A DNA stretch of 10,073 nucleotides from Promethearchaeota archaeon (GCA_027031765.1 JALVPN010000179.1:1-10073); one strand, 5' to 3'. Counted from the stretch's first letter, positions 180 through 10,073 are shown. Numbers and translations: made by a program. Notes: generated by a model not told the origin, from the letters alone.

Positions 180-1658
180 TCACGGGTTGTATGCGAACGG
201 GTGACGGGCCGAGTCGCGCCGGGCGACAATCTCGTCAACGGTCTGTCGGCCCTCTATGGCACGTCTAAGCGCATGCCGTACGGCACGGAAGTTGTTGATG
301 TACACCCGACGTGGGTTGTTCGCGTTGGGGTGCACGAAGGCATTGACCACCACGACTATGTCGTCCAGGAGTTCTTCAGGGAGGATGCCATCGGTGATGG
401 TCCGCCGTACGGCGTCAGCAACAGCATGCTGGGCCACATCATAGACGAGGTGCCTGTGGCGCTCATGGGTGATCGTTACTGTGGAGGCGAAGACGACCGT
501 CACCTCGAGGTCCTTTACGAGGTTGCAGGAGTGGTGCCCCTCAGTGGTCTTGCCAACAATGTCGAGAGCGGCCTGGACGGGGCCGTCCTTGATGCCGAGC
601 ACCAGGTCTACATGTGCCACCTCCTGGCCCTCACCGCACAGCGACTCGCCATGCAGGAGGGTGAGGTCGGGGACCTCGTCTGGGACGAGACCGACAGCCT
701 TCGGGTACGACTCTGCCACCACGTACTTGTCACCCATGCGGTACCTCACGGGCCCACGTGGTATCAGGCGCAGGTCTTCCAGGCACGTGCGCAGCTCGTC
801 CAGGTCTTCATACCTGAACGAGTCACCACAGAGGAGGGGTCTGCGGGCATCGCCAACAGGCACACCCATCATGTTGAGGGCTGCCTTTACTGCGAGGCCG
901 CCACCCTTGTTGACGATGATACGCACCGCCTTCTGGATGCTGCGCTGGACTATCAGGGCCTCCTTCAGGTCGCCGCGAGCAAGTGCGGCCTGCATCTTGA
1001 TGTAGCGGTCGGGGAACACGTTCGCACTGGCAAGGACTGCCCCGTCGCAACCAGCAGCAAAGGCTGGTAGTGCGACCTCGTCGTGGCCGATGACCACCTG
1101 GAACCCTTCAGGCCTCCGGACAAGGATGGTCGTCAGGTTGACGAGGTTGCCACTGGAGTCCTTCATGCCCGCAATGCCATCAATCTCGCGGAGGCCGTCC
1201 ACAAGCCACCAGTCGAGGTTCACACCTGTGACCTGGGGGATGTTGTATACGAATACGGGCAGGCTACTTGCATTTGCGACGCGCTCGTAGTGCTCGTAGA
1301 TCTCCTTTGTTGTGGGCCGCAGGAAGTACGGTGTCACGACCAGCACCGCACTGGCACCGAGCTCTGCTGCACGGCGCGTGAGCTTGACAGCATCGCCGGT
1401 GTAGGCCGCGCCCGTGCCAGCGAGGACAGGCACACGCCCCTTTGCGGCCTCACAGGCAATACGGATTGCCTCCACCTTCTCGTCGAACGTCATGCTGGTG
1501 AACTCGCCGGTGGTACCGCATGGGACAATGCCGGTGGCGCCAGCATGGATGACATGGTCAATGAGCCCCCGGTACTGCTCCTCGTCGACGCCGTCTTCAT
1601 TGAACGGTGTGACGAGCGCCGGGTAGACACCTTTGAACTTGAACTGTTTCTCAGCCAT
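180..1658 (-). CDS. dapA: DapA/DHDPS-family class I aldolase fused to a C-terminal formaldehyde-activating enzyme (Fae) domain (paralogue A, ~492 aa)
   Basis: N-terminal ~300 aa carry DapA-family motifs PALVTPF, GTTGEF, GRVPVLAGTG, YNIP and the Schiff-base Lys in MKDSSG (codon 1161-1163). The C-terminal ~160 aa (approx. 180-660) match Fae: GESLCGEGQEVAHVDL, AQHAVADAV, DGILP, FVHP, ARHPF. Start placed at ATG 1658, 3 nt after SD GGGGGTGAT (1670-1662); ATG 1661 is an alternative, and the ORF-track start 1733 overlaps the upstream gene. The symbol is family-level only; true DHDPS activity is doubtful. Confidence 0.9.
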   Translation of the reverse strand: MAEKQFKFKGVYPALVTPFNEDGVDEEQYRGLIDHVIHAGATGIVPCGTTGEFTSMTFDEKVEAIRIACEAAKGRVPVLAGTGAAYTGDAVKLTRRAAELGASAVLVVTPYFLRPTTKEIYEHYERVANASSLPVFVYNIPQVTGVNLDWWLVDGLREIDGIAGMKDSSGNLVNLTTILVRRPEGFQVVIGHDEVALPAFAAGCDGAVLASANVFPDRYIKMQAALARGDLKEALIVQRSIQKAVRIIVNKGGGLAVKAALNMMGVPVGDARRPLLCGDSFRYEDLDELRTCLEDLRLIPRGPVRYRMGDKYVVAESYPKAVGLVPDEVPDLTLLHGESLCGEGQEVAHVDLVLGIKDGPVQAALDIVGKTTEGHHSCNLVKDLEVTVVFASTVTITHERHRHLVYDVAQHAVADAVRRTITDGILPEELLDDIVVVVNAFVHPNANNPRRVYINNFRAVRHALRRAIEGRQTVDEIVARRDSARHPFAYNP

Positions 1659-1661
1659 CAT

Positions 1662-1670
1662 ATCACCCCC
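1662..1670 (-). promoter_or_regulatory. Shine-Dalgarno site GGGGGTGAT containing the upstream gene's TGA stop
   Basis: Minus strand reads TGG GGG TGA T ATG ATG, an 8/9 match to the archaeal consensus GGAGGTGAT. Confidence 0.7.
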
Positions 1671-3063
1671 AGACCTGCGCCAACGCCTCACCAACGGCCT
1701 GTTCGGCGGCACGGGTGACCGCGCGTCGGTCATGCTCGTTCAGGTCGACATCCATCACCATGACCATCACTTCAGAGTGAACGGCACCAGCCGGTATCTT
1801 GCCAGCAGAGAGAGCAGACGCCACTGCCCGGGCGGCACCGGACTGGACCGGGCCATAGAACAGCGATGCCTGGCGCATGGACTTGATCCTCCGTGCCGGC
1901 AACATCAGGCTGCTCGGTCGGACGGGCAGGTTCGGCTCAAGGATCACAGTGAGTGCTTCATGCCCCACACGTGGTGCAGCGAGGAGCCTGACGAATGCCC
2001 GTCCCAGTGGCCCGCTCTTTGGGCCGGCTGCCAGCACCACAGAGACCGTGTCGTTGGATGCCCGGCCGGTACGGAGCCCTTCGATGGCCGCATCATCAAG
2101 ACCACAGTCGTAGAGGGTCTTGCTTATGTCTATATCCGACTTGACAGGCGGGCGCTCAAGCCCCCCGATGAGGCCCAGACGTCCGAGCTCAAGGCGCACC
2201 TCTTCTCGGAGCTCACGAGTAAGGGTACCGCCCGAGTCGAGGGGCATCCTCGGGTACCCTGCGTGGACTCCCATCATCCGGAGGGCGGCCTTGACCGGGG
2301 GCGCCCCACCGTTCCTCGTTATTATGCGCGACAGCGTCTGGACAGAGAGCTGCAGACGCCGTGCCTCCTCAATCTCCCCCTTGCGGACATGCTCCATTAT
2401 CTCCAACCAGACATGTGGGATGACGTTCGCAGAGGCGAGGATGGCTGCACTGGCACCAGCAGCGACAGCCGACAGGAAACACTCGTCGTGACCGATGAGC
2501 ACCGGCATCTTGTGGCCCACTTTCTGGATTAGTTCGAGAGTGTGTGGGATGTTGCCACTGCTGTCCTTTATAGCAACGATGTTGTCCAGCCCCGCGAGGT
2601 CTTCCACGACGTTTGACTGGAGTATGCCGAGGGTACACTGTGGGATGTTGTACATTATTACGGGCAGGTCCCCCTGCCGTGCGACTGTCGCGTAGTGTTC
2701 GTAGTAGCCCTTGTCAGTGGGACGCAGGTAGAATGGGGAGATGACGAGGGCCGCATCACAACCGATGTCAGCAGCGTACTTTGTCAGGGCGACCGTGGCC
2801 CTAGTGCTGTTCTGACCGGTACCAGCGACCACCGGCACGCGCCCGTCAACGAACTCGACGGCAAGACGCAGGACACGCTTCCGCTCCTCAGTACGCATGT
2901 ACACGAACTCGCCCGTCGTACCACACGGGACGACACCCGTTGCCCCCTTCTCTATCACGTAGTCAATGACCTCTCTGAACCCGTCCTCAAGCACATCACC
3001 GTCCTTGGTGAAGGGTGTCACGAGAGCAGGCATTACACCTGTCGGGACGAACCTCTTTGCCAT
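1663..3063 (-). CDS. dapA: DapA/DHDPS-family class I aldolase fused to a degenerate Fae-like domain (paralogue B, ~466 aa)
   Basis: Motifs PALVTPF, GTTGEF, GRVPVVAGTG, YNIP and IKDSSG (Lys codon 2566-2568). The C-terminal region (approx. 1663-2075) has Fae-like GPKSGP..AF, PNLPVRP, GPVQSGAARAV and GKIP, but no AHxD and no terminal HPF. Start set at ATG 3063 (MAKRF) because it aligns with paralogue A's start and lies ~40 nt below a BRE/TATA; the 3252 start lies upstream of that promoter. The symbol is family-level only. Confidence 0.9.
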   Translation of the reverse strand: MAKRFVPTGVMPALVTPFTKDGDVLEDGFREVIDYVIEKGATGVVPCGTTGEFVYMRTEERKRVLRLAVEFVDGRVPVVAGTGQNSTRATVALTKYAADIGCDAALVISPFYLRPTDKGYYEHYATVARQGDLPVIMYNIPQCTLGILQSNVVEDLAGLDNIVAIKDSSGNIPHTLELIQKVGHKMPVLIGHDECFLSAVAAGASAAILASANVIPHVWLEIMEHVRKGEIEEARRLQLSVQTLSRIITRNGGAPPVKAALRMMGVHAGYPRMPLDSGGTLTRELREEVRLELGRLGLIGGLERPPVKSDIDISKTLYDCGLDDAAIEGLRTGRASNDTVSVVLAAGPKSGPLGRAFVRLLAAPRVGHEALTVILEPNLPVRPSSLMLPARRIKSMRQASLFYGPVQSGAARAVASALSAGKIPAGAVHSEVMVMVMDVDLNEHDRRAVTRAAEQAVGEALAQVWG

Positions 3064-3374: not shown

Positions 3375-3683
3375 ATGACCGAGTTCATCGTTGTACTGGC
3401 GACAGCACCGGAGGCCGAGGCCGAGAGGATAGCGCGGGCCCTAGTAGAACGCGGTCTGTGTGCCTGTGTGAACATCATTGGTGGTGTGAGCAGCATCTAC
3501 CGCTGGAAGGGGTCCATAGAGTCTGGTGCAGAGGCTGTACTCCTGATGAAGACAACGGCAGCCCTTCAGGAGCATCTCTACGAGGCACTCCGTGGACTCC
3601 ACCCGTATGAGGTCCCAGAGTTCATAGTGCTCCCAATAGTCGGTGGCAGCGACGAGTACCTCAACTGGTTGCGCGGCGAATAG
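3375..3683 (+). CDS. cutA: Divalent-cation tolerance protein CutA
   Basis: 102 aa with the family motifs LVERGLCACVNI, SIYRWKG, LLMKT, HPYEVPE and Y(L)NW. Confidence 0.95.
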   Translation: MTEFIVVLATAPEAEAERIARALVERGLCACVNIIGGVSSIYRWKGSIESGAEAVLLMKTTAALQEHLYEALRGLHPYEVPEFIVLPIVGGSDEYLNWLRGE

Positions 3684-3703
3684 GGCCCGTCCCAAGTGCC
3701 GGC

Positions 3704-6154
3704 TCACGCTATGCCAGCGCCCCGGGCTGCATACCGCAACGACTCGTTGAAGTACTTCCCGACGACCGCCGCAATCGCAGGCCCGACCACACGGTCAATG
3801 TCGCCGGCCATCATAGCACGGAGGTCAGCGCGGGGTGACAGCTTGCCACGCCGTTTCAGGTGGCCAATCTCCCGCTGGACTATTGAGCGGGCCTCTTCAA
3901 TGCGCATGGCCTCTGCAGACGTCCCGATCAGGCCACGCTTGATTGCAGTTATGGCGTCCATCACGAAGACAGCCAAGTTGTCGAGGTCGTCTGACGTCTT
4001 CATGTTGGCAGCACCATGTCGTGGACAGCTCTCTCCCGACGGAGCGGCACCACACAGTGTGCAGACCCTTCGCCCACGGTTGGAACGTACGTAGTATGAC
4101 AGGAGGTTGGCGCACTTGATGCTGTCATTGGGCCCCCACTCAAGGCCACGACTGCCCACACGCCCCACTGCCTTGAACGCCGTTGTGGCCTTCGTATGAA
4201 TCCACGAGACAACATCGATCATCCTGCGTTTCCGGTCGATGACTGCGCGTCCCTGCAGCTGGAGTTCGGCAGCCTCCTCCTCTTTCTTCATCTTCTTCTG
4301 GCGCTCGCGTTGCAGGAACCTGTGCATGATGTCGTATGCAATGGCATAGTTGTCAAACTCAAGGCCGTCGAGCCTGAGCGGGGCGTCCACAATGCCCTCG
4401 AACACGGGGCTCGGAGTACGCCTGAGCTCCTCCTTTGCAGAGTCCATGTCTGTGCCACTGAGGCGCGCGTGCATCCACGTACAAATAGTGGGTGCATCGA
4501 GGTCGGGCAGGACACACTTCGCCTCATATATGCGCCTTGATGCGAGGTCTATGAGTATCTCCTCCCGGAGGCTCTGTAGCCGGGGCTCAGTGTCCTCATA
4601 GATGCTCTTCAGCAGTGCCTTCATCCGCAGCAGGTCATTTTTCGACCGGATGTACATCTCGACAATACGGGTGAGGTTTGTGAGCAGCCCGGTAGTGAGG
4701 TGCCAGACAATGTCAAGGCGCAGTGCCAAGAGGCTCTCCTTCGTGCGCCGCTGCAGGCCCATCTCACCCGACGTCGTGGCCACGGCCCCGAGCTCACCGC
4801 TCTCGACCCGCCTGCGCACTTCCAGCAGGTGCACGACCTCTTCTGGAGGCGGCACCCGCATCTTCTTCTTGAGCTCTTCGAGGACCTGCACCTCAACACC
4901 GATGAGCGACTCCGGCGGCCGTGTGAGGACCTCTATGGTGACCTTGTCCAGTTCCGAGGCCCGCATGCCCCGTGCACGGAGGGCACCCTTGACAGGCTTC
5001 TCAAGAGCGCGTTCGAGCTTCTCAAGAGTGCGGAGGGAGCGTTCAATCTGGTCCAGCTCCGCCTGTGTGAGTGCGGGGCCGCCTGCTCCACCGGTCTCGA
5101 CCTGTCCCTCCTCGGCGACCTCCAATAGGCCACGGGCCAGCTGTTCACCATCGTCCAAGCCGGCCTGCCTCAGGCCCTTCCGCACTGTGTCCGGGGCAAG
5201 ACCGAGCAGGTGGGCGAGGAGCTCGGCTGCGTGCTGAGGGTCATCGAGTATCATACTACCGACCTCGCGTGCCATGGTACGTGCCATGCGGGCCTCGTAC
5301 TCCTCAAGCGTGGCAGGGCTCTCGAACTCCATCTGAAGGGCCTCCAGCAGCGAGAGTCGGAGTGCGTGGGCACGACGGATCACCGGGATATGCCTGGGCT
5401 CGACAAGGAGGCGTCGTGCCGTGTACTTTGCAATCACGGCCCAGACCTCCTCAGAGACCGGGGCGTGGAGCAGGCGGCCCCGGGGATACTCTAGACGCCC
5501 GAATATACGTTTCAGGGCCCGCTTGAGCACGGAGACCTCGATGACCTCGTACTCGTGCTCGCGCAGGAGTTCGTCACGCAGCGAGAGGGCCGACTCCTTC
5601 AGGCCCGACGCCCGTTCGTATAGCTCCCGGCGCCAATCGTCGCCCCACCCCGTCACCTGGACGACGAAGTCGACGTCCATTATGGGACCGTAGTCGCTCG
5701 GGATCTCAGCAAGGTGCTCACGTACGAGCTCGTCAGTCCTGTGCAGGACATCTGGGTCGTACGGGTCACCGTTGCCGAGCTCGTCACAGAAGCGGACCGT
5801 GAACTCGCTCACCAGACGCGCGATGTCAATCTCCTCGGTCAACCTGGTACCGAGGAACTGTCTACACTCGAGCTCCAGTTGACGGCGTTCCTCAGCAGCC
5901 ACATCGTCGTGTCCCTCTGTGGGCTGAGTGAACGCGGTCTCTGTGCTCTGCAGCCGGATACCACTGTAGTGGTACAGGTAGAAGCTGGCGAAGGACGAGA
6001 GTATGTCCTCGAACGGACGTGGCTCGCCTAGGATGGACGCAAGGGTAGTCCGGTCACGACTACTGCGCATATGGTTGACCAGTGCCTCCCGTAGTAGGAT
6101 TTCCTTGCCGGCCTCACTCATCTGACGGGTCCTCAAGACCCATGCCCGTGACAT
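3704..6154 (-). CDS. Large uncharacterised alpha-helical protein (816 aa) with a C-terminal CxxC-x8-CxxH Zn-finger motif
   Basis: 2.4 kb ORF with normal globular/helical composition. ATG 6154 is preceded by SD GGGGTGA plus 4 nt, overlapping the upstream stop. No family recognised. Confidence 0.85.
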   Translation of the reverse strand: MSRAWVLRTRQMSEAGKEILLREALVNHMRSSRDRTTLASILGEPRPFEDILSSFASFYLYHYSGIRLQSTETAFTQPTEGHDDVAAEERRQLELECRQFLGTRLTEEIDIARLVSEFTVRFCDELGNGDPYDPDVLHRTDELVREHLAEIPSDYGPIMDVDFVVQVTGWGDDWRRELYERASGLKESALSLRDELLREHEYEVIEVSVLKRALKRIFGRLEYPRGRLLHAPVSEEVWAVIAKYTARRLLVEPRHIPVIRRAHALRLSLLEALQMEFESPATLEEYEARMARTMAREVGSMILDDPQHAAELLAHLLGLAPDTVRKGLRQAGLDDGEQLARGLLEVAEEGQVETGGAGGPALTQAELDQIERSLRTLEKLERALEKPVKGALRARGMRASELDKVTIEVLTRPPESLIGVEVQVLEELKKKMRVPPPEEVVHLLEVRRRVESGELGAVATTSGEMGLQRRTKESLLALRLDIVWHLTTGLLTNLTRIVEMYIRSKNDLLRMKALLKSIYEDTEPRLQSLREEILIDLASRRIYEAKCVLPDLDAPTICTWMHARLSGTDMDSAKEELRRTPSPVFEGIVDAPLRLDGLEFDNYAIAYDIMHRFLQRERQKKMKKEEEAAELQLQGRAVIDRKRRMIDVVSWIHTKATTAFKAVGRVGSRGLEWGPNDSIKCANLLSYYVRSNRGRRVCTLCGAAPSGESCPRHGAANMKTSDDLDNLAVFVMDAITAIKRGLIGTSAEAMRIEEARSIVQREIGHLKRRGKLSPRADLRAMMAGDIDRVVGPAIAAVVGKYFNESLRYAARGAGIA

Positions 6155-6170
6155 CTCCTCACCCCACCTC
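6155..6170 (-). promoter_or_regulatory. Shine-Dalgarno region GAGGTGGGGTGAGGAG containing the upstream stop codon
   Basis: Minus strand reads GAG GTG GGG TGA GGAG ATG. Confidence 0.65.
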
Positions 6171-8753
6171 CGTGTTGCCAGCCCTGACCGTAAGGGTGTC
6201 GCCAGACAGTTCGTACGTCACAAGGCGCAGCAGGCCCGGCCGTTCGGGACGACGCAGGTACACGGCCACAGGGCGTGGCATCACACGGCTGAAAGCCCGG
6301 GCCATCGTGTCGAGCACATGCTCTACAAAGCCATCAAGGTCCGGGTCATGGGTGCCGGACATATCCGTGGCGCCCCCTGCGACCTGTGCAAGACGCCCAT
6401 TCAGGTCGTTGTACATCTCCCTGTACGCGGACTCCATCTCGGCGATGGTCTCGCTCATGACACGGTGCAGGTGTTCGTATACCCGCAGGTCTTTTGATGG
6501 GGTCGGGCGCGGTGGCGGTGGCACTTCATGGCGCAGTGGGAACTCTGACTCCACTGGCGCAAGGTACTCGGACAGGGGCGGCGGGGGAGTAGGTGGTGAC
6601 TCGTCCGGTCTGAGGAGGGCCTGTGCTCTCCTCTGCTCATAGTCAGCAAGCGCAGACTGGTACCGTGCCGTGTCAACCTCATGACGAATCCTTGCATCCG
6701 ACAGTTGCCGTTCGCGCTCCTCATTGTGTTTCCGCACCCGCAAATTCTCGGCCTCGACCTCACGGCACCGCTGCTCCCACGCCGCAACCTGCTGGTCGTA
6801 GTCGGCCTTCAGCGAATGGTATGCCGACGTGATGCGTCCAACTGTGTCGACAGCACGGTGACCACGCACCTTTGAGTGCACGAAGCGCACCAGTTCGATG
6901 AGCACCTGTGAGAGCGGTGCCCCACCCCCAACAGACGACTTGATGCACGATGCGAACTCCCGGAGCCAGTGTCGGGCCTCCTGCTTCCACGCATCATCAC
7001 GCTCCGCGTTCTCAACTGCCCGCTCAAGTGCCGCGAGAGGGCTCAGACCATTCTCACGTGATCTCTGCACAATCCAGTCGATGGTGCGCGTGGAAACGAG
7101 GGAGTCTGCAAGATCGGGCACTATCTCGCTCACCGTCCTCACTGTATAGTCCAAGAGCTTCATGGCCGCCACGTCCTCTGGCGACGGACTGTCAGACCCA
7201 TCAGCAGGTGCTTGGAGGCGGGCCCCGACAAGCTCGTGGAGGTCCTGCGGGCCGACCATGTCCCAGATACTGCCCCGGCCGACCCTATCGACCATCTCCC
7301 GTGCCACATGGGCCGCTGCAGACGCGGGGCTCTCGTGGGAAACACCTGTATAGGACATCTGGTCAAAGATTGCATTGAGCTGGGCATACGCGTCCCGCGT
7401 GTACCTCTCAAGGACAAGGCGGGCTGCTGGTGTGAGCTCGCGGGACTCCTCAGTTTCTGCAAAGTCGCGTATGACGGACAGGCACAGATGTCGTGCAGAG
7501 TGTATGAACACATATTGGGCGAGGCGGCCAATCAGGTACTCGCTGACGCGCCGGGCATACGCGACAAAGTAGTGGAGTGTGGCCTTGAGCCTCCAGGCGC
7601 GGATCTCGACACCTGTCCCGAACTCGCGCTTGAGGGCTGCTGTCGCCTGCTGGACGAGGGACGTGAACATGGGACGACGGGGGCCCCTGAACCGTTCGGG
7701 GTACATGTCCATGAACTCAAGTAGGGCCTGATGGTGGCCGTCAAGTGAAAGAACCTCTCCAGACCGTACGTGGGCCTCCACCGCGTCCGCCAGCGCACCG
7801 ACCACCTCCTCCAGCGTGTCACCGAAGGTGTGGGCAGCACTGGTCAGCCGGCCACGTTCGTGCAGTGGCGTACCCGCACTGGCAAGCTGCTGTTGGAGCA
7901 GCTCGACCACGGTCCGCAAGATGTCGGCCTCCTCAATACTATACGCGTAGACGTTCAGCTCTCCAATGACTGCACGGCCGAGCTCCGGGACTCGATATAC
8001 CAACGTGTGGAGACCGGTCGGTGTGAGGACCATGCCCCGCAGGAGTCCCAAGGCCGACTCCTCATCACCAGCAGGTGGGAGCGAGAACTCGACCGACTCG
8101 ACCGCCCCCTGTGGGAGGACTGCAGCAGGCAGTGTCGTGAAGTCGGGCGTGGCCGGTACCATCACTTCCGTGTCTGGCGGGACGTCCGCCGAACGGATGT
8201 GCAGCGAGTCCCACGAGCCCTGGAACTGGCGGTCCACCATGTCCACGAATAGGACGCTGTTCAGCCGGTCGTTGAACCTCTGGAGGACGCGCAACCCCTG
8301 TGACTCATAGTCGAGTCCATTGTTCACCGTGGCCTGCTCGATGTCCGCGAGCTTCTTGGCGAGTGTGTGGATGTACTCGTCAATCTTGAACGGGTCGACC
8401 AGCCCACGCTCCCAGCTCACCACCGAAACGTGTACGTGTACGTCGCCAGACCGACCGCCAGCGACCACGAGCTGTTCTGGCAGCACCTCTGAGCTAGAGG
8501 CCCTGTCAAGGTCCCAGATTATGGCAAGGATCTCGTAGCCATCTCGCTCCCTGATGCTCTTGCGCACCTCTGACACAAGAGGTGTAACGCCCATCGCCAC
8601 GGAGCTCGAGTTGTGTTCCATCATCGTGCCGCATCCCAGGGCGCTCCCAATGGGATGCCCCTTGCTGGTGGTGGTGCCCAAGATAGCGGCGGATGCCATC
8701 TGGATGGCCTCAACTGTGCTCGGTGTGTCACCCCTAGACTTGCCTGCAGCCAT
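6159..8753 (-). CDS. Large uncharacterised protein (~810-890 aa) with a long heptad helix and polyproline tract
   Basis: 2.6 kb ORF, no family recognised. The stop is firm but the start is uncertain. ATG 8753 has SD-like GTGAGGA 8 nt upstream and GC-rich third positions downstream of it; alternatives are GTG 8831, ATG 8699 and ATG 8594 (MGVTPL, where clearly globular sequence begins). Confidence 0.8.
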   Translation of the reverse strand: MAAGKSRGDTPSTVEAIQMASAAILGTTTSKGHPIGSALGCGTMMEHNSSSVAMGVTPLVSEVRKSIRERDGYEILAIIWDLDRASSSEVLPEQLVVAGGRSGDVHVHVSVVSWERGLVDPFKIDEYIHTLAKKLADIEQATVNNGLDYESQGLRVLQRFNDRLNSVLFVDMVDRQFQGSWDSLHIRSADVPPDTEVMVPATPDFTTLPAAVLPQGAVESVEFSLPPAGDEESALGLLRGMVLTPTGLHTLVYRVPELGRAVIGELNVYAYSIEEADILRTVVELLQQQLASAGTPLHERGRLTSAAHTFGDTLEEVVGALADAVEAHVRSGEVLSLDGHHQALLEFMDMYPERFRGPRRPMFTSLVQQATAALKREFGTGVEIRAWRLKATLHYFVAYARRVSEYLIGRLAQYVFIHSARHLCLSVIRDFAETEESRELTPAARLVLERYTRDAYAQLNAIFDQMSYTGVSHESPASAAAHVAREMVDRVGRGSIWDMVGPQDLHELVGARLQAPADGSDSPSPEDVAAMKLLDYTVRTVSEIVPDLADSLVSTRTIDWIVQRSRENGLSPLAALERAVENAERDDAWKQEARHWLREFASCIKSSVGGGAPLSQVLIELVRFVHSKVRGHRAVDTVGRITSAYHSLKADYDQQVAAWEQRCREVEAENLRVRKHNEERERQLSDARIRHEVDTARYQSALADYEQRRAQALLRPDESPPTPPPPLSEYLAPVESEFPLRHEVPPPPRPTPSKDLRVYEHLHRVMSETIAEMESAYREMYNDLNGRLAQVAGGATDMSGTHDPDLDGFVEHVLDTMARAFSRVMPRPVAVYLRRPERPGLLRLVTYELSGDTLTVRAGNTEVG

Positions 8754-8840
8754 TGTGCGGATCCTCACGGGCGATGGTCTGTGGACAACGGGACAGACTG
8801 TCACCGTCCAATATGGCGGCCTAATGTGCACCGTTTCTTT

Positions 8841-9815
8841 TCAATATAGCTGAGAGAAGTCCCCGTCGCCACTGATTGGTGACCACACTCCATCAAGGTC
8901 ATGGGTCACCAGGCCTGCCATTTTGAGGAAGTGCAGTGATACCTCCACAGTTGTTGGTAGGAGGCACTCCAGGCATGTCGGGTGGGGGACACTCCCTGAC
9001 TCACGGATGTCGTGTACGACCTGCTCGGTGCTCGCATGCTTCCTAGCGACGACATGGTTGAGGACAGCGTCCTCGAATGCCAGCAGGGCGTCGGAGGCCT
9101 GTTCGAGAGCAAGACGGGCCTTGTCACCGAGCCAGGCCACATCGTGTGCAGGCAGCAGGTACTCGACGTCCAGCTTGGAGAGCTCGTCAAGGGCTTCCAG
9201 CCGGGCCGGTATGCTGCCAGACAGGTCAAAGTAGAAGAGCTCGGGTCGGTTCGGAAACCCCACCACTTCATCCCCCGCGAGGAGGATGCCTGCTTCCTCC
9301 TCATAGAACACACAGTGACCGGCCGAGTGGCCGCCCGTGTGGATCACGGTCAGACGCATGTCGCCGAGGTTGATCAGTGCTTGGTCTTCAAGCGTCCCGT
9401 CAGGGACCACACTGGGAAACCTCACGCTGAACGGGCCCTTTGAGAGGTACAGGCCGACCTGTTCTAGTAGGCCCGTACGCAGGCGGGACTTGAAAGATGC
9501 CGGGTCTGAGAGGAGCATGGCATCGCGTTCGTGTACCATCACTGTTGCGGATGTCACACTCTTCACCTGCGCGACGCCACCCACATGGTCAGGATGACCA
9601 TGGGTACACAGGATGAACCTGACATCCTCGGCGGGCTCGTAGCCGACCTCGCGGATGGCATCGACTATCGCGGGCCCGGGGTCGTTGTGCAGCCCCGGGT
9701 CAACAACCGCAACACCCTCGGCCCCTGCCACAACATAGGAGGTGAGATACCCCATCTCTTCGTAATACTGCCCTCTCACTGCATAAACAGAGGGCGCCAC
9801 CTCTGTCACAGCCAT
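8841..9815 (-). CDS. MBL-fold metallo-hydrolase (glyoxalase II/LACTB2-like) with a probable C-terminal helical/winged-helix extension, ~324 aa
   Basis: Motifs VVDPG, HGHPDH (HxHxDH, 9585-9602), TGGHSAGH, AGDEV and LLPAH. Start at ATG 9815 (MAVTEVAPSVYAV) gives the typical MBL N-terminus and lies ~28 nt below a TATA box. Confidence 0.92.
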   Translation of the reverse strand: MAVTEVAPSVYAVRGQYYEEMGYLTSYVVAGAEGVAVVDPGLHNDPGPAIVDAIREVGYEPAEDVRFILCTHGHPDHVGGVAQVKSVTSATVMVHERDAMLLSDPASFKSRLRTGLLEQVGLYLSKGPFSVRFPSVVPDGTLEDQALINLGDMRLTVIHTGGHSAGHCVFYEEEAGILLAGDEVVGFPNRPELFYFDLSGSIPARLEALDELSKLDVEYLLPAHDVAWLGDKARLALEQASDALLAFEDAVLNHVVARKHASTEQVVHDIRESGSVPHPTCLECLLPTTVEVSLHFLKMAGLVTHDLDGVWSPISGDGDFSQLY

Positions 9816-9839
9816 TGCAAGGAACGTCCTACCGCCCGG

Positions 9840-9846
9840 CTTAATA
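9840..9846 (-). promoter_or_regulatory. TATA box (TATTAAG) for the MBL gene, probably leaderless transcript
   Basis: The only AT-rich box in the region, centred ~28 nt upstream of ATG 9815. No SD before the ATG. Confidence 0.6.
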
Positions 9847-10073
9847 CAGTATCGATGGACTCCTGTGGAGGCGCGGCGGACGCACCTGCAGTAGGGTGGG
9901 GGACTCACGCAGGACGGCACAACGTAGAGGGTACAGTGCCCGGGCGCCATATCTGGGGCCTCTCTGGCGCCGTCACACCAGCAACGTGGAGGGGGTACTT
10001 CCAGACGGACACACCCGGGCTGGTGCGGGGGGTCGTGGTGGTTCGTGAAGCACCGGAGGGCTTGCGCCCTGGC

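Follow-up and report, generated by a model that had tools for sequence, protein, structure and literature searches.

Paired aldolase-Fae fusion proteins of Thorarchaeota retain opposite faces of one interface and may share a composite Fae-type site

Two neighboring genes in a Thorarchaeota (Asgard) genome, here designated A and B, each encode a class I aldolase of the dihydrodipicolinate synthase (DHDPS) family joined to a formaldehyde-activating (Fae) domain, and in each protein the Fae domain has lost elements that are present in the Fae of M. extorquens. The locus raises the question of whether B is a decayed companion of a catalytically self-sufficient A, as an original prediction made from the DNA alone had proposed, or whether the two proteins complete one active site between them. 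The genes lie on contig C179 (GCA_027031765.1, JALVPN010000179.1:1-10073) of a 2.95-Mb genome that is 95% complete; the whole 10,073-nucleotide stretch that was analyzed is referred to below as the window. Residue conservation, gene co-occurrence, phylogeny, and a model of the paired Fae domains suggest that A and B form an obligate heteromer with a composite, or split, Fae-type site, a reading to which we assign a probability of roughly 0.7.

Two adjacent fusion genes with a predicted coupling signal

Genes B (positions 1663 to 3063; 466 amino acids, beginning MAKRF and ending with the TGA at 1663 to 1665) and A (positions 180 to 1661; 492 to 493 amino acids, with the stop codon at 180 to 182) are arranged head to tail on the minus strand, as are all of their features given below. 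In both, open reading frame and Pfam analyses place the aldolase domain (PF00701) ahead of the Fae domain (PF08714). The start codon of B was chosen by agreement with 120 orthologs, and all of the codons discussed here were retranslated from the window DNA. A scan of the whole genome identified A and B as its only DHDPS-family genes and its only Fae-family genes. No RNA data set is listed as containing this DNA; the single data set listed is a hydrothermal-vent metagenome, from which it may derive.

The junction between the two genes (1656 to 1674) comprises TGG GGG as the last codons of B, the TGA stop codon, a 1-nucleotide spacer (T), and the ATG ATG of A. The sequence GGGGGTGAT within the last codons of B resembles an archaeal Shine-Dalgarno site for A. 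In 18 further Thor loci with a readable junction, the spacer ranges from -4 to +7 nucleotides and is preceded by TGGAGG or TGGGGG. These features fit the translational coupling that had been proposed for the pair, and the predicted coupling signal at the junction is conserved. The conserved C-terminal Trp-Arg or Trp-Gly codons of B (TGG AGG or TGG GGG plus the stop codon; window positions 1663 to 1674) double as this Shine-Dalgarno-like site, so part of the conservation of the B C terminus may reflect a constraint at the nucleotide level.

Each Fae domain retains a different part of the Fae site

Fae, which condenses formaldehyde with tetrahydromethanopterin (H4MPT), is a homopentamer, and in the M. 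extorquens enzyme the cofactor cleft is reported to lie between two neighboring subunits. This enzyme (PDB 1Y5Y/1Y60) served as the reference for the Fae residues, with the chain index of 1Y5Y plus 1 giving the published numbering. The Fae domain of A (183 to 671) aligns with it over residues 8 to 168 and keeps His22 (H349, codon 612 to 614), Asp24 (D351; His349-Val-Asp351 spans 606 to 614), Thr73 (T395), Gln88 (Q410), and the His-Pro-Phe (HPF) motif of the C-terminal arm (195 to 203). It carries threonine (T393) at the Lys71 position, its EPNL loop is deleted, and DV replaces the GP of the GPxQ motif. The Fae-like domain of B (1666 to 2088) aligns over residues 16 to 110 and keeps PNLPxxP and GPxQ, in the form of an EPNLPVRP loop (1915 to 1938) and a GPVQ at the Gln88 motif (1843 to 1854). 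At the His22 and Asp24 positions, B has Ser341 (2041 to 2043) and Val343 (Ser341-Val-Val343, 2035 to 2043); Lys71 and Thr73 are replaced by Ala and Arg, and the chain stops about 23 residues early, with the HPF arm absent. Both domains score above the gathering cutoff of 27 bits for Pfam Fae (115.1 bits for A and 87.7 bits for B), and A passes the TIGR03126 equivalog-domain cutoff of 118.05 bits (128.8 bits), which B fails (78.4 bits).

Alignment to 1Y5Y and codon retranslation confirm what had been read from the DNA alone, namely, that A keeps the His (codon 612 to 614), Asp, Thr, Gln, and terminal HPF and that B has Ser for His and Val for Asp, lacks the HPF tail, and keeps PNLPVRP and GPxQ. 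The description of these differences as asymmetric decay, with a Lys-to-Thr change and the loss of PNLxxKP in A, needs to be amended. The residues involved are real, but A has also lost the GP of GPxQ and B also lacks Lys71 and Thr73. Furthermore, although both of the changes noted in A were seen, threonine occupies the Lys71 position throughout the fusion family, including the single-copy forms, and is therefore ancestral and not a sign of decay in A; in this respect, the entire family differs from the M. extorquens enzyme. Judged by motif content, neither A nor B carries both walls of the inter-subunit cofactor cleft in one subunit type. The M. extorquens enzyme is a homopentamer of unfused Fae, with both faces on each subunit; in A and B, by comparison, an aldolase precedes the Fae domain, and the faces are divided between paralogs.

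A single old duplication of a single-copy fusion

Single-copy fusions of the same architecture, which are uncharacterized and annotated as DapA, were found in a scan of species-representative genomes to be widespread in the Bathyarchaeia and in Asgard archaea of the Loki/Hod type and to occur once in the Methanofastidiosia. Other Asgard families contain one canonical Fae-Hps gene and one aldolase-Fae fusion of about 500 amino acids. The single-copy proteins share the two-domain arrangement of A and B and the aldolase signature YNIPQ[VC]T, in place of YNVPSRT, and represent the direct ancestor type of the pair. They differ from A and B in having both Fae faces (HD, EPNLxVKP, GPxQ, and HPF) in one chain. 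All 78 of the single-copy fusions contain His22, and nearly all contain Asp24, the EPNLxVKP loop, GPxQ, HP[FLY], and Tyr107 of the aldolase.

Tandem pairs consisting of a B-like gene followed by an A-like gene are also present outside the Thor lineage, at three Bathyarchaeota and two Thermoplasmata loci, and these pairs show the same split. The B-like members lack the arm and keep the loop and GPxQ, and the A-like members keep the arm and the His/Asp residues and have lost the loop and the GP. The sequences P0116, P0117, and P0120 are A-type members of Bathyarchaeia pairs. Trees were built, including one from the 276 aldolase-domain columns alone, a data set without the Fae traits. All B-type sequences form one clade, with a Shimodaira-Hasegawa-like approximate likelihood ratio test (SH-aLRT) support of 99 (97 on the aldolase columns only), as do all A-type sequences (98, and 92 on the aldolase columns only). 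The trees, gene adjacency, and motif signatures place window protein A in the A-type clade and window protein B in the B-type clade, and the Thor stem branches are long. Both clades include the non-Thor pairs. The trees thus trace the pair to one old duplication, after which A and B passed together, by descent or by transfer, through three phyla.

The loss of the catalytic His is more variable. The original prediction tied this loss to the existence of the pair, which holds within the Thor family, where none of the 120 B orthologs keeps the His, but not uniformly outside it, as five B-type genes of the Bathyarchaeia and Thermoplasmata retain the residue. In nine other non-Thor B-type clusters (50% identity), the position is occupied by Q, Y, A, V, G, S, or R, which is the pattern expected of a site freed from constraint. 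From these alignments, the loss of His in B is secondary and lineage variable and does not define the B type; the older and universal marks are the missing arm in B and, in A, the missing loop and GP. Some of the non-Thor B-type clusters (P0251, P0252, and P0302) have degenerated further, showing EPGL for EPNL, GV.Q for GP.Q, or, in one cluster, the loss of both motifs. This additional motif decay indicates that the B-type clade is heterogeneous outside the Thorarchaeia.

A and B are conserved together in the Thor family

The ortholog sets collected from databases comprised 109 A and 120 B proteins, which are 64 to 78% identical to the window proteins across the family. His22 and Asp24 are kept in 108 of the 109 A orthologs and in none of the 120 B orthologs. 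In B, the G and Q of GPxQ are invariant (120/120) and the P is nearly so (117/120), and the C-terminal tail is absent from every sequence (120/120). On these counts, the apparent division of Fae motifs between A and B is not due to chance.

The family survey covered 86 genomes of Thor family f1, among which a B-type gene was found in 75 and an A-type gene in 76, with both present in 72 and neither in 7. In 70 of the 72 genomes with both, the genes are on the same contig, and in all 70 of these cases B precedes A in the same orientation. In every genome with only one of the genes, or with the genes on two contigs, the gene is located at a contig end. A and B therefore do not occur independently; wherever the matter can be judged, neither is found alone, and the prediction that the two are conserved together is upheld.

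The retained elements lie on opposite faces of a modeled interface

The Fae domains of A (residues 318 to 492) and B (residues 305 to 466) were modeled as a 1:1 complex, each with its own alignment. The model scored 0.89, compared with 0.01 for the best of three controls, and in a benchmark of the score mark, 58 of 80 solved complexes attained it, as did 2 of 110 mismatched pairs. At least 85% of contacts are common to the model runs, and the predicted local distance difference test (pLDDT) value of the partner is at least 89. The heteromeric Fae-domain model thus passes its controls, in keeping with the multimer that had been envisaged for the pair. On the A side, the modeled interface comprises residues 336 to 340, 351 to 353 (including Asp24), 393 to 395 (Thr71/Thr73), and 484 to 488 (the HPF arm); on the B side, it comprises 374 to 382 (EPNLPVRP), 404 to 408 (GPxQ), and 411 to 419. 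In the model, the face retained by A is apposed to the face retained by B.

Retention of the ancestral residue was assessed at the Fae-domain positions that are at least 90% conserved in the single-copy forms (n = 69). In the A-side interface columns (n = 14), Thor A keeps the ancestral residue at a frequency of 0.91 and Thor B at 0.11, and in the B-side columns (n = 15), the corresponding values are 0.22 and 0.88. The non-Thor pairs show the same pattern, with A and B retention of 0.86 and 0.34 on the A side and of 0.33 and 0.83 on the B side. Conserved aldolase columns (n = 104) are kept equally in the two proteins (0.80 in each). Counted by column, face 1 has 13 positions kept in A only and none in B only, and face 2 has 1 kept in A only and 11 in B only (Fisher P = 3e-6 for the segregation of faces, a value that is indicative only, since the columns are contiguous). 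Within the family, conservation in B is lowest on its unused face (0.56 versus 0.71 to 0.75), and the unused face of A is slightly relaxed within the Thor lineage (0.76 versus 0.81 to 0.83).

A composite site and its alternatives

These observations can be accommodated by a model in which the common ancestor of A and B was one aldolase-Fae fusion gene, of the kind that is still single copy in many archaea that use H4MPT. After the old duplication, each copy would have retained one wall of the inter-subunit cofactor cleft. A would supply one wall, built from the strand with His22 and Asp24, the strand with Thr71 and Thr73, and the HPF arm at the C terminus; the other wall, with the EPNLxV(K/R)P loop and the helix bearing GPxQ (Gln88), would come from B. 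Since each copy holds only one wall, a complete Fae-type site would form only where the retained faces of A and B meet. One coupled transcript would yield both proteins, acting as an obligate heteromer, and in the Thor family B would later have shed a His and an Asp that were no longer needed. A ring that lost one interface might have become a heterodimer. The anatomy of the genes, their conservation and co-occurrence, the single duplication, and the reciprocal retention of faces are direct observations, from which we infer physical binding of A to B, the composite site, and its stoichiometry.

The aldolase domains provide a further hint. In DHDPS tight dimers, Tyr107 (E. coli numbering) enters the active site of the partner subunit. 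This position corresponds to Phe112 in A (1323 to 1325) and Tyr112 in B (2728 to 2730). Phenylalanine is characteristic of Thor A proteins (PYF in 105 of 107), whereas B, the other A-type proteins, and the single-copy forms keep tyrosine. Thor A would accordingly have exchanged the residue that reaches across the dimer, and in an A/B aldolase dimer, B would complete the site of A. The asymmetry may be read as a hint of such a dimer.

Several points weigh against the composite-site reading. The Fae homopentamer has already been solved, and the model may have passed on its likeness to that structure, so that the score may reflect memory of the known fold; moreover, a complex score of this kind cannot tell hetero- from homo-oligomers and is no proof of A/B binding. 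The value of the model here is geometric, and even the definition of the faces is partly circular, as the modeling may itself favor better-conserved surfaces. Double losses are not depleted (12 columns lost in both copies versus about 9.5 expected if losses were independent), and the argument rests on where the losses sit, in their spatial segregation, and not on their number. The unused face of A is still fairly conserved, as its value of 0.76 indicates, and may have another role. Rings built of A and B have to be reckoned with as well, and a Fae pentamer cannot alternate 1:1. The Tyr107 clue is a single residue, A keeps a neighboring tyrosine (PYF), and phenylalanine is likewise seen in 12 of 119 B copies.

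The original prediction was that of a catalytic subunit with a pseudo-enzyme, in which the Fae site of A is self-sufficient and the Fae-like domain of B is a dead scaffold or regulator that stabilizes or tunes A. The absence of His22/Asp24 and of the arm in B, its score below the TIGR03126 cutoff, and the poor conservation of its unused face would all fit such a role. This explanation is nonetheless unlikely. The EPNL loop and GP, elements kept in at least 90% of the 78 single-copy forms, are missing from A, so that A by itself has just one of the two walls of the ancestral cleft. Precisely these elements are retained in B, where they are placed at the modeled interface; by supplying conserved pocket elements that A has lost, B would provide half of a composite site and not a mere scaffold. 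The catalytic residues of the aldolase are also intact in B, where the Schiff-base Lys, Tyr133, GTTGE, and Tyr107 are all kept. The part of the prediction that called for an obligate A/B hetero-oligomer is thus supported by co-occurrence, the duplication, the segregated faces, and the model, while the designation of B as a pseudo-enzyme is too simple.

It is somewhat less probable still that A and B are two independent homo-oligomeric enzymes, with the Fae-like domain of B reused for another ligand and the linkage of the genes reflecting only a shared pathway. Purifying selection on both copies, the apparent catalytic competence of both aldolase domains, and the long Thor stem branches, which would fit new functions, are compatible with that explanation. 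It leaves unexplained why the reciprocal losses map to opposite faces of one interface, why neither the gene order nor the coupled junction varies, and why the pair moves as a unit across three phyla. In a homo-oligomer of B, every interface would be without the arm (and, in the Thor family, the His/Asp residues), and in a homo-oligomer of A, every interface would be without the loop and GPxQ. The least probable of the explanations considered is a heteromer held together through a DHDPS-type tight dimer of the aldolases, with the Fae-like domains lying apart and differing by drift or through separate roles. The crossing of Tyr107 into the partner site and the Phe/Tyr difference between Thor A and B would be expected of such a dimer, but it accounts neither for the Fae losses on opposite faces nor for the confident Fae-Fae model, and the Tyr107 change is Thor specific, whereas the Fae split is common to every pair.

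If A and B do share a composite site, they would offer a clear natural example of a homo-oligomer that, once duplicated, became an obligate heteromer through the division of its interface active site, with the ancestral single-copy form surviving for comparison. Mutually dependent pairs of a live and a degenerate paralog with interface active sites are known in trypanosomatids, in deoxyhypusine synthase and in S-adenosylmethionine decarboxylase (AdoMetDC) with its prozyme. Those enzymes have unrelated folds and come from unrelated organisms; in the present pair, moreover, conserved parts of the pocket come from A and B alike, and each partner has a further catalytic domain that is intact. The Fae and aldolase folds are known individually; no study is known of their fusion in this arrangement or of a single interface site shared out between two paralogous fusions.

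The aldolase domains and their possible chemistry

Both aldolase domains score above the TIGR00674 (DapA) cutoff of 206.15 (229.1 for A and 224.4 for B), and residue alignment shows that both keep the DapA-type Schiff-base Lys161, Tyr133, and Thr44/45. In A (759 to 1637), these correspond to Lys166 (1161 to 1163), Tyr138, and GTTGE, and in B (2164 to 3042), they correspond to Lys166 (2566 to 2568), Tyr138, and GTTGE. In DapA, Arg138 binds aspartate semialdehyde. This residue is replaced by Val in A (YNIPQVTG) and by Cys in B (YNIPQCTL), compared with YNVPSRT in M. jannaschii DapA, and the 95%-complete genome contains neither Asd (TIGR00978) nor DapB (DapB_C, PF05173). A true DapA function is ruled out by the missing Arg138 and the lack of Asd and DapB, and the database name DapA is probably wrong. 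A and B are thus annotated everywhere as a lysine biosynthesis enzyme even though the organism lacks the enzymes that would make its substrate and use its product.

A functional parallel is Fae-Hps (NF009833) of methanogens and most other Asgard families, in which Fae is likewise fused to a formaldehyde-handling enzyme that acts on carbon-carbon bonds and in which formaldehyde is likely passed between the aldolase-type site and H4MPT. The arrangement differs in that the partner in A and B is a pyruvate aldolase of the class I DHDPS/NAL type instead of hexulose-6-phosphate synthase, and the Fae domain is C terminal instead of N terminal. A and B contain no Hps domain, and NF009833 scores over their Fae part only. 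Thor family f1 has no Fae-Hps and no hexulose-6-phosphate synthase scoring above the cutoff, and the genome studied here has no RuMP_HxlA match above the cutoff. Most other Asgard families, unlike Thor family f1, do have Fae-Hps.

The genome encodes MCH, indicative of an H4MPT-dependent one-carbon (C1) pathway, and ThrC-like genes but lacks Hom and has no ThrB above the cutoff, that is, no clear homoserine kinase. Across the 86 family genomes, Hom was found in 3 and ThrC-like genes were found in all 86, scoring above the cutoff in 68. Among Asgard genomes that are at least 85% complete, grouped by family, Hom is rare in the families that carry the fusion (3/57 in f1, 0/3 in f4, 0/5 in f13, and 0/7 in f14). 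It is common where Fae is absent (16/21 in f8, 2/3 in f9, 3/5 in f10, and 13/15 in f11) and in families with Fae-Hps only (17/18 in f15 to f19 and f29 together).

Tentatively, the Fae module would exchange a C1 unit between methylene-H4MPT and formaldehyde, and the aldolase would join the C1 unit to, or split it from, pyruvate, with 4-hydroxy-2-oxobutanoate, the keto acid that corresponds to homoserine and is a precursor of it, as the product of the joining reaction. Cleavage, the opposite direction, may be the alternative chemistry. More speculatively still, A/B might pass C1 units from methylene-H4MPT at the composite Fae site, as formaldehyde, to the aldolase and pyruvate, providing an aspartate-independent source of homoserine, threonine, and methionine in the Thorarchaeia and other archaea without Asd and Hom, with the TIM-barrel protein of about 430 amino acids described below catalyzing a further step. 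We know of such a homoserine route otherwise only as the engineered "homoserine cycle," and a literature search found no publication on an aldolase-Fae or DapA-Fae fusion, on the A/B pair, or on a natural archaeal route through 4-hydroxy-2-oxobutanoate.

The anticorrelation between Hom and the fusion is not strict, which counts against the homoserine proposal; family f30 has both, and in f22, Hom occurs in 28 of 63 genomes with at least two Fae hits and in 27 of 39 with one (hand count). The proposal also has to do without a homoserine kinase in the genome, and the organisms may simply be auxotrophs. A role analogous to that of PanB, as an H4MPT-dependent ketopantoate hydroxymethyltransferase, was ruled out, as a normal PanB (PF02548, E value of 1.5e-115) is encoded in the genome. 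What the fusions encode appears to be a C1 enzyme that is widespread among archaea (Asgard archaea, Bathyarchaeia, and Thermoplasmata) and connects 2-oxo-acid chemistry with the H4MPT pool, and if the homoserine-precursor reading is true, metabolic reconstructions of these uncultured archaea would change.

Neighboring and linked genes

The genes next to A and B in the window are CutA, two large proteins of about 890 and 816 amino acids without any Pfam family, and a metallo-beta-lactamase (MBL)-fold protein. These Thor neighbors are uninformative on the function of A and B. The gene order over window positions 3375 to 9950 is kept in a complete Thorarchaeota chromosome (L098), where an MBL-fold protein, the two large proteins, CutA, B, and A follow one another.

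The single-copy fusion usually adjoins a gene for a protein of about 430 amino acids, which is present at 56 of 80 loci in two phyla and, at the Asgard loci, lies directly upstream on the same strand. The genome studied here encodes this protein on another contig (C120; L124:8750-10045); further copies are located at L071:4680-5966 and L053:4448-5716. Proteins from the Bathyarchaeia and Asgard loci are 61 to 74% identical to the copy in this genome and contain many invariant His, Glu, Asp, and Lys residues. The protein matched no Pfam or NCBIfam family, and all of its Atlas scores were 0.83 or lower. An AlphaFold2 model (pLDDT of 84.8) consists of a helical N-terminal domain and a TIM barrel. 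A Foldseek search of this model against the PDB returned nothing below 1e-3, and a wide structural search (VIA) gave a flat list at Z scores of about 12 (CutC, DUF849/Kce, and glutamate mutase) with no specific relative.

On the same contig (L124:6433-7932), about 0.8 kb from the TIM-barrel gene, is a gene encoding a 499-amino-acid ThrC-like pyridoxal phosphate enzyme fused to a C-terminal PadR-type DNA-binding domain (PALP-PadR). The adjacency of these two genes is probably incidental; a riboflavin-type S component of an energy-coupling factor (ECF) transporter is encoded between them.

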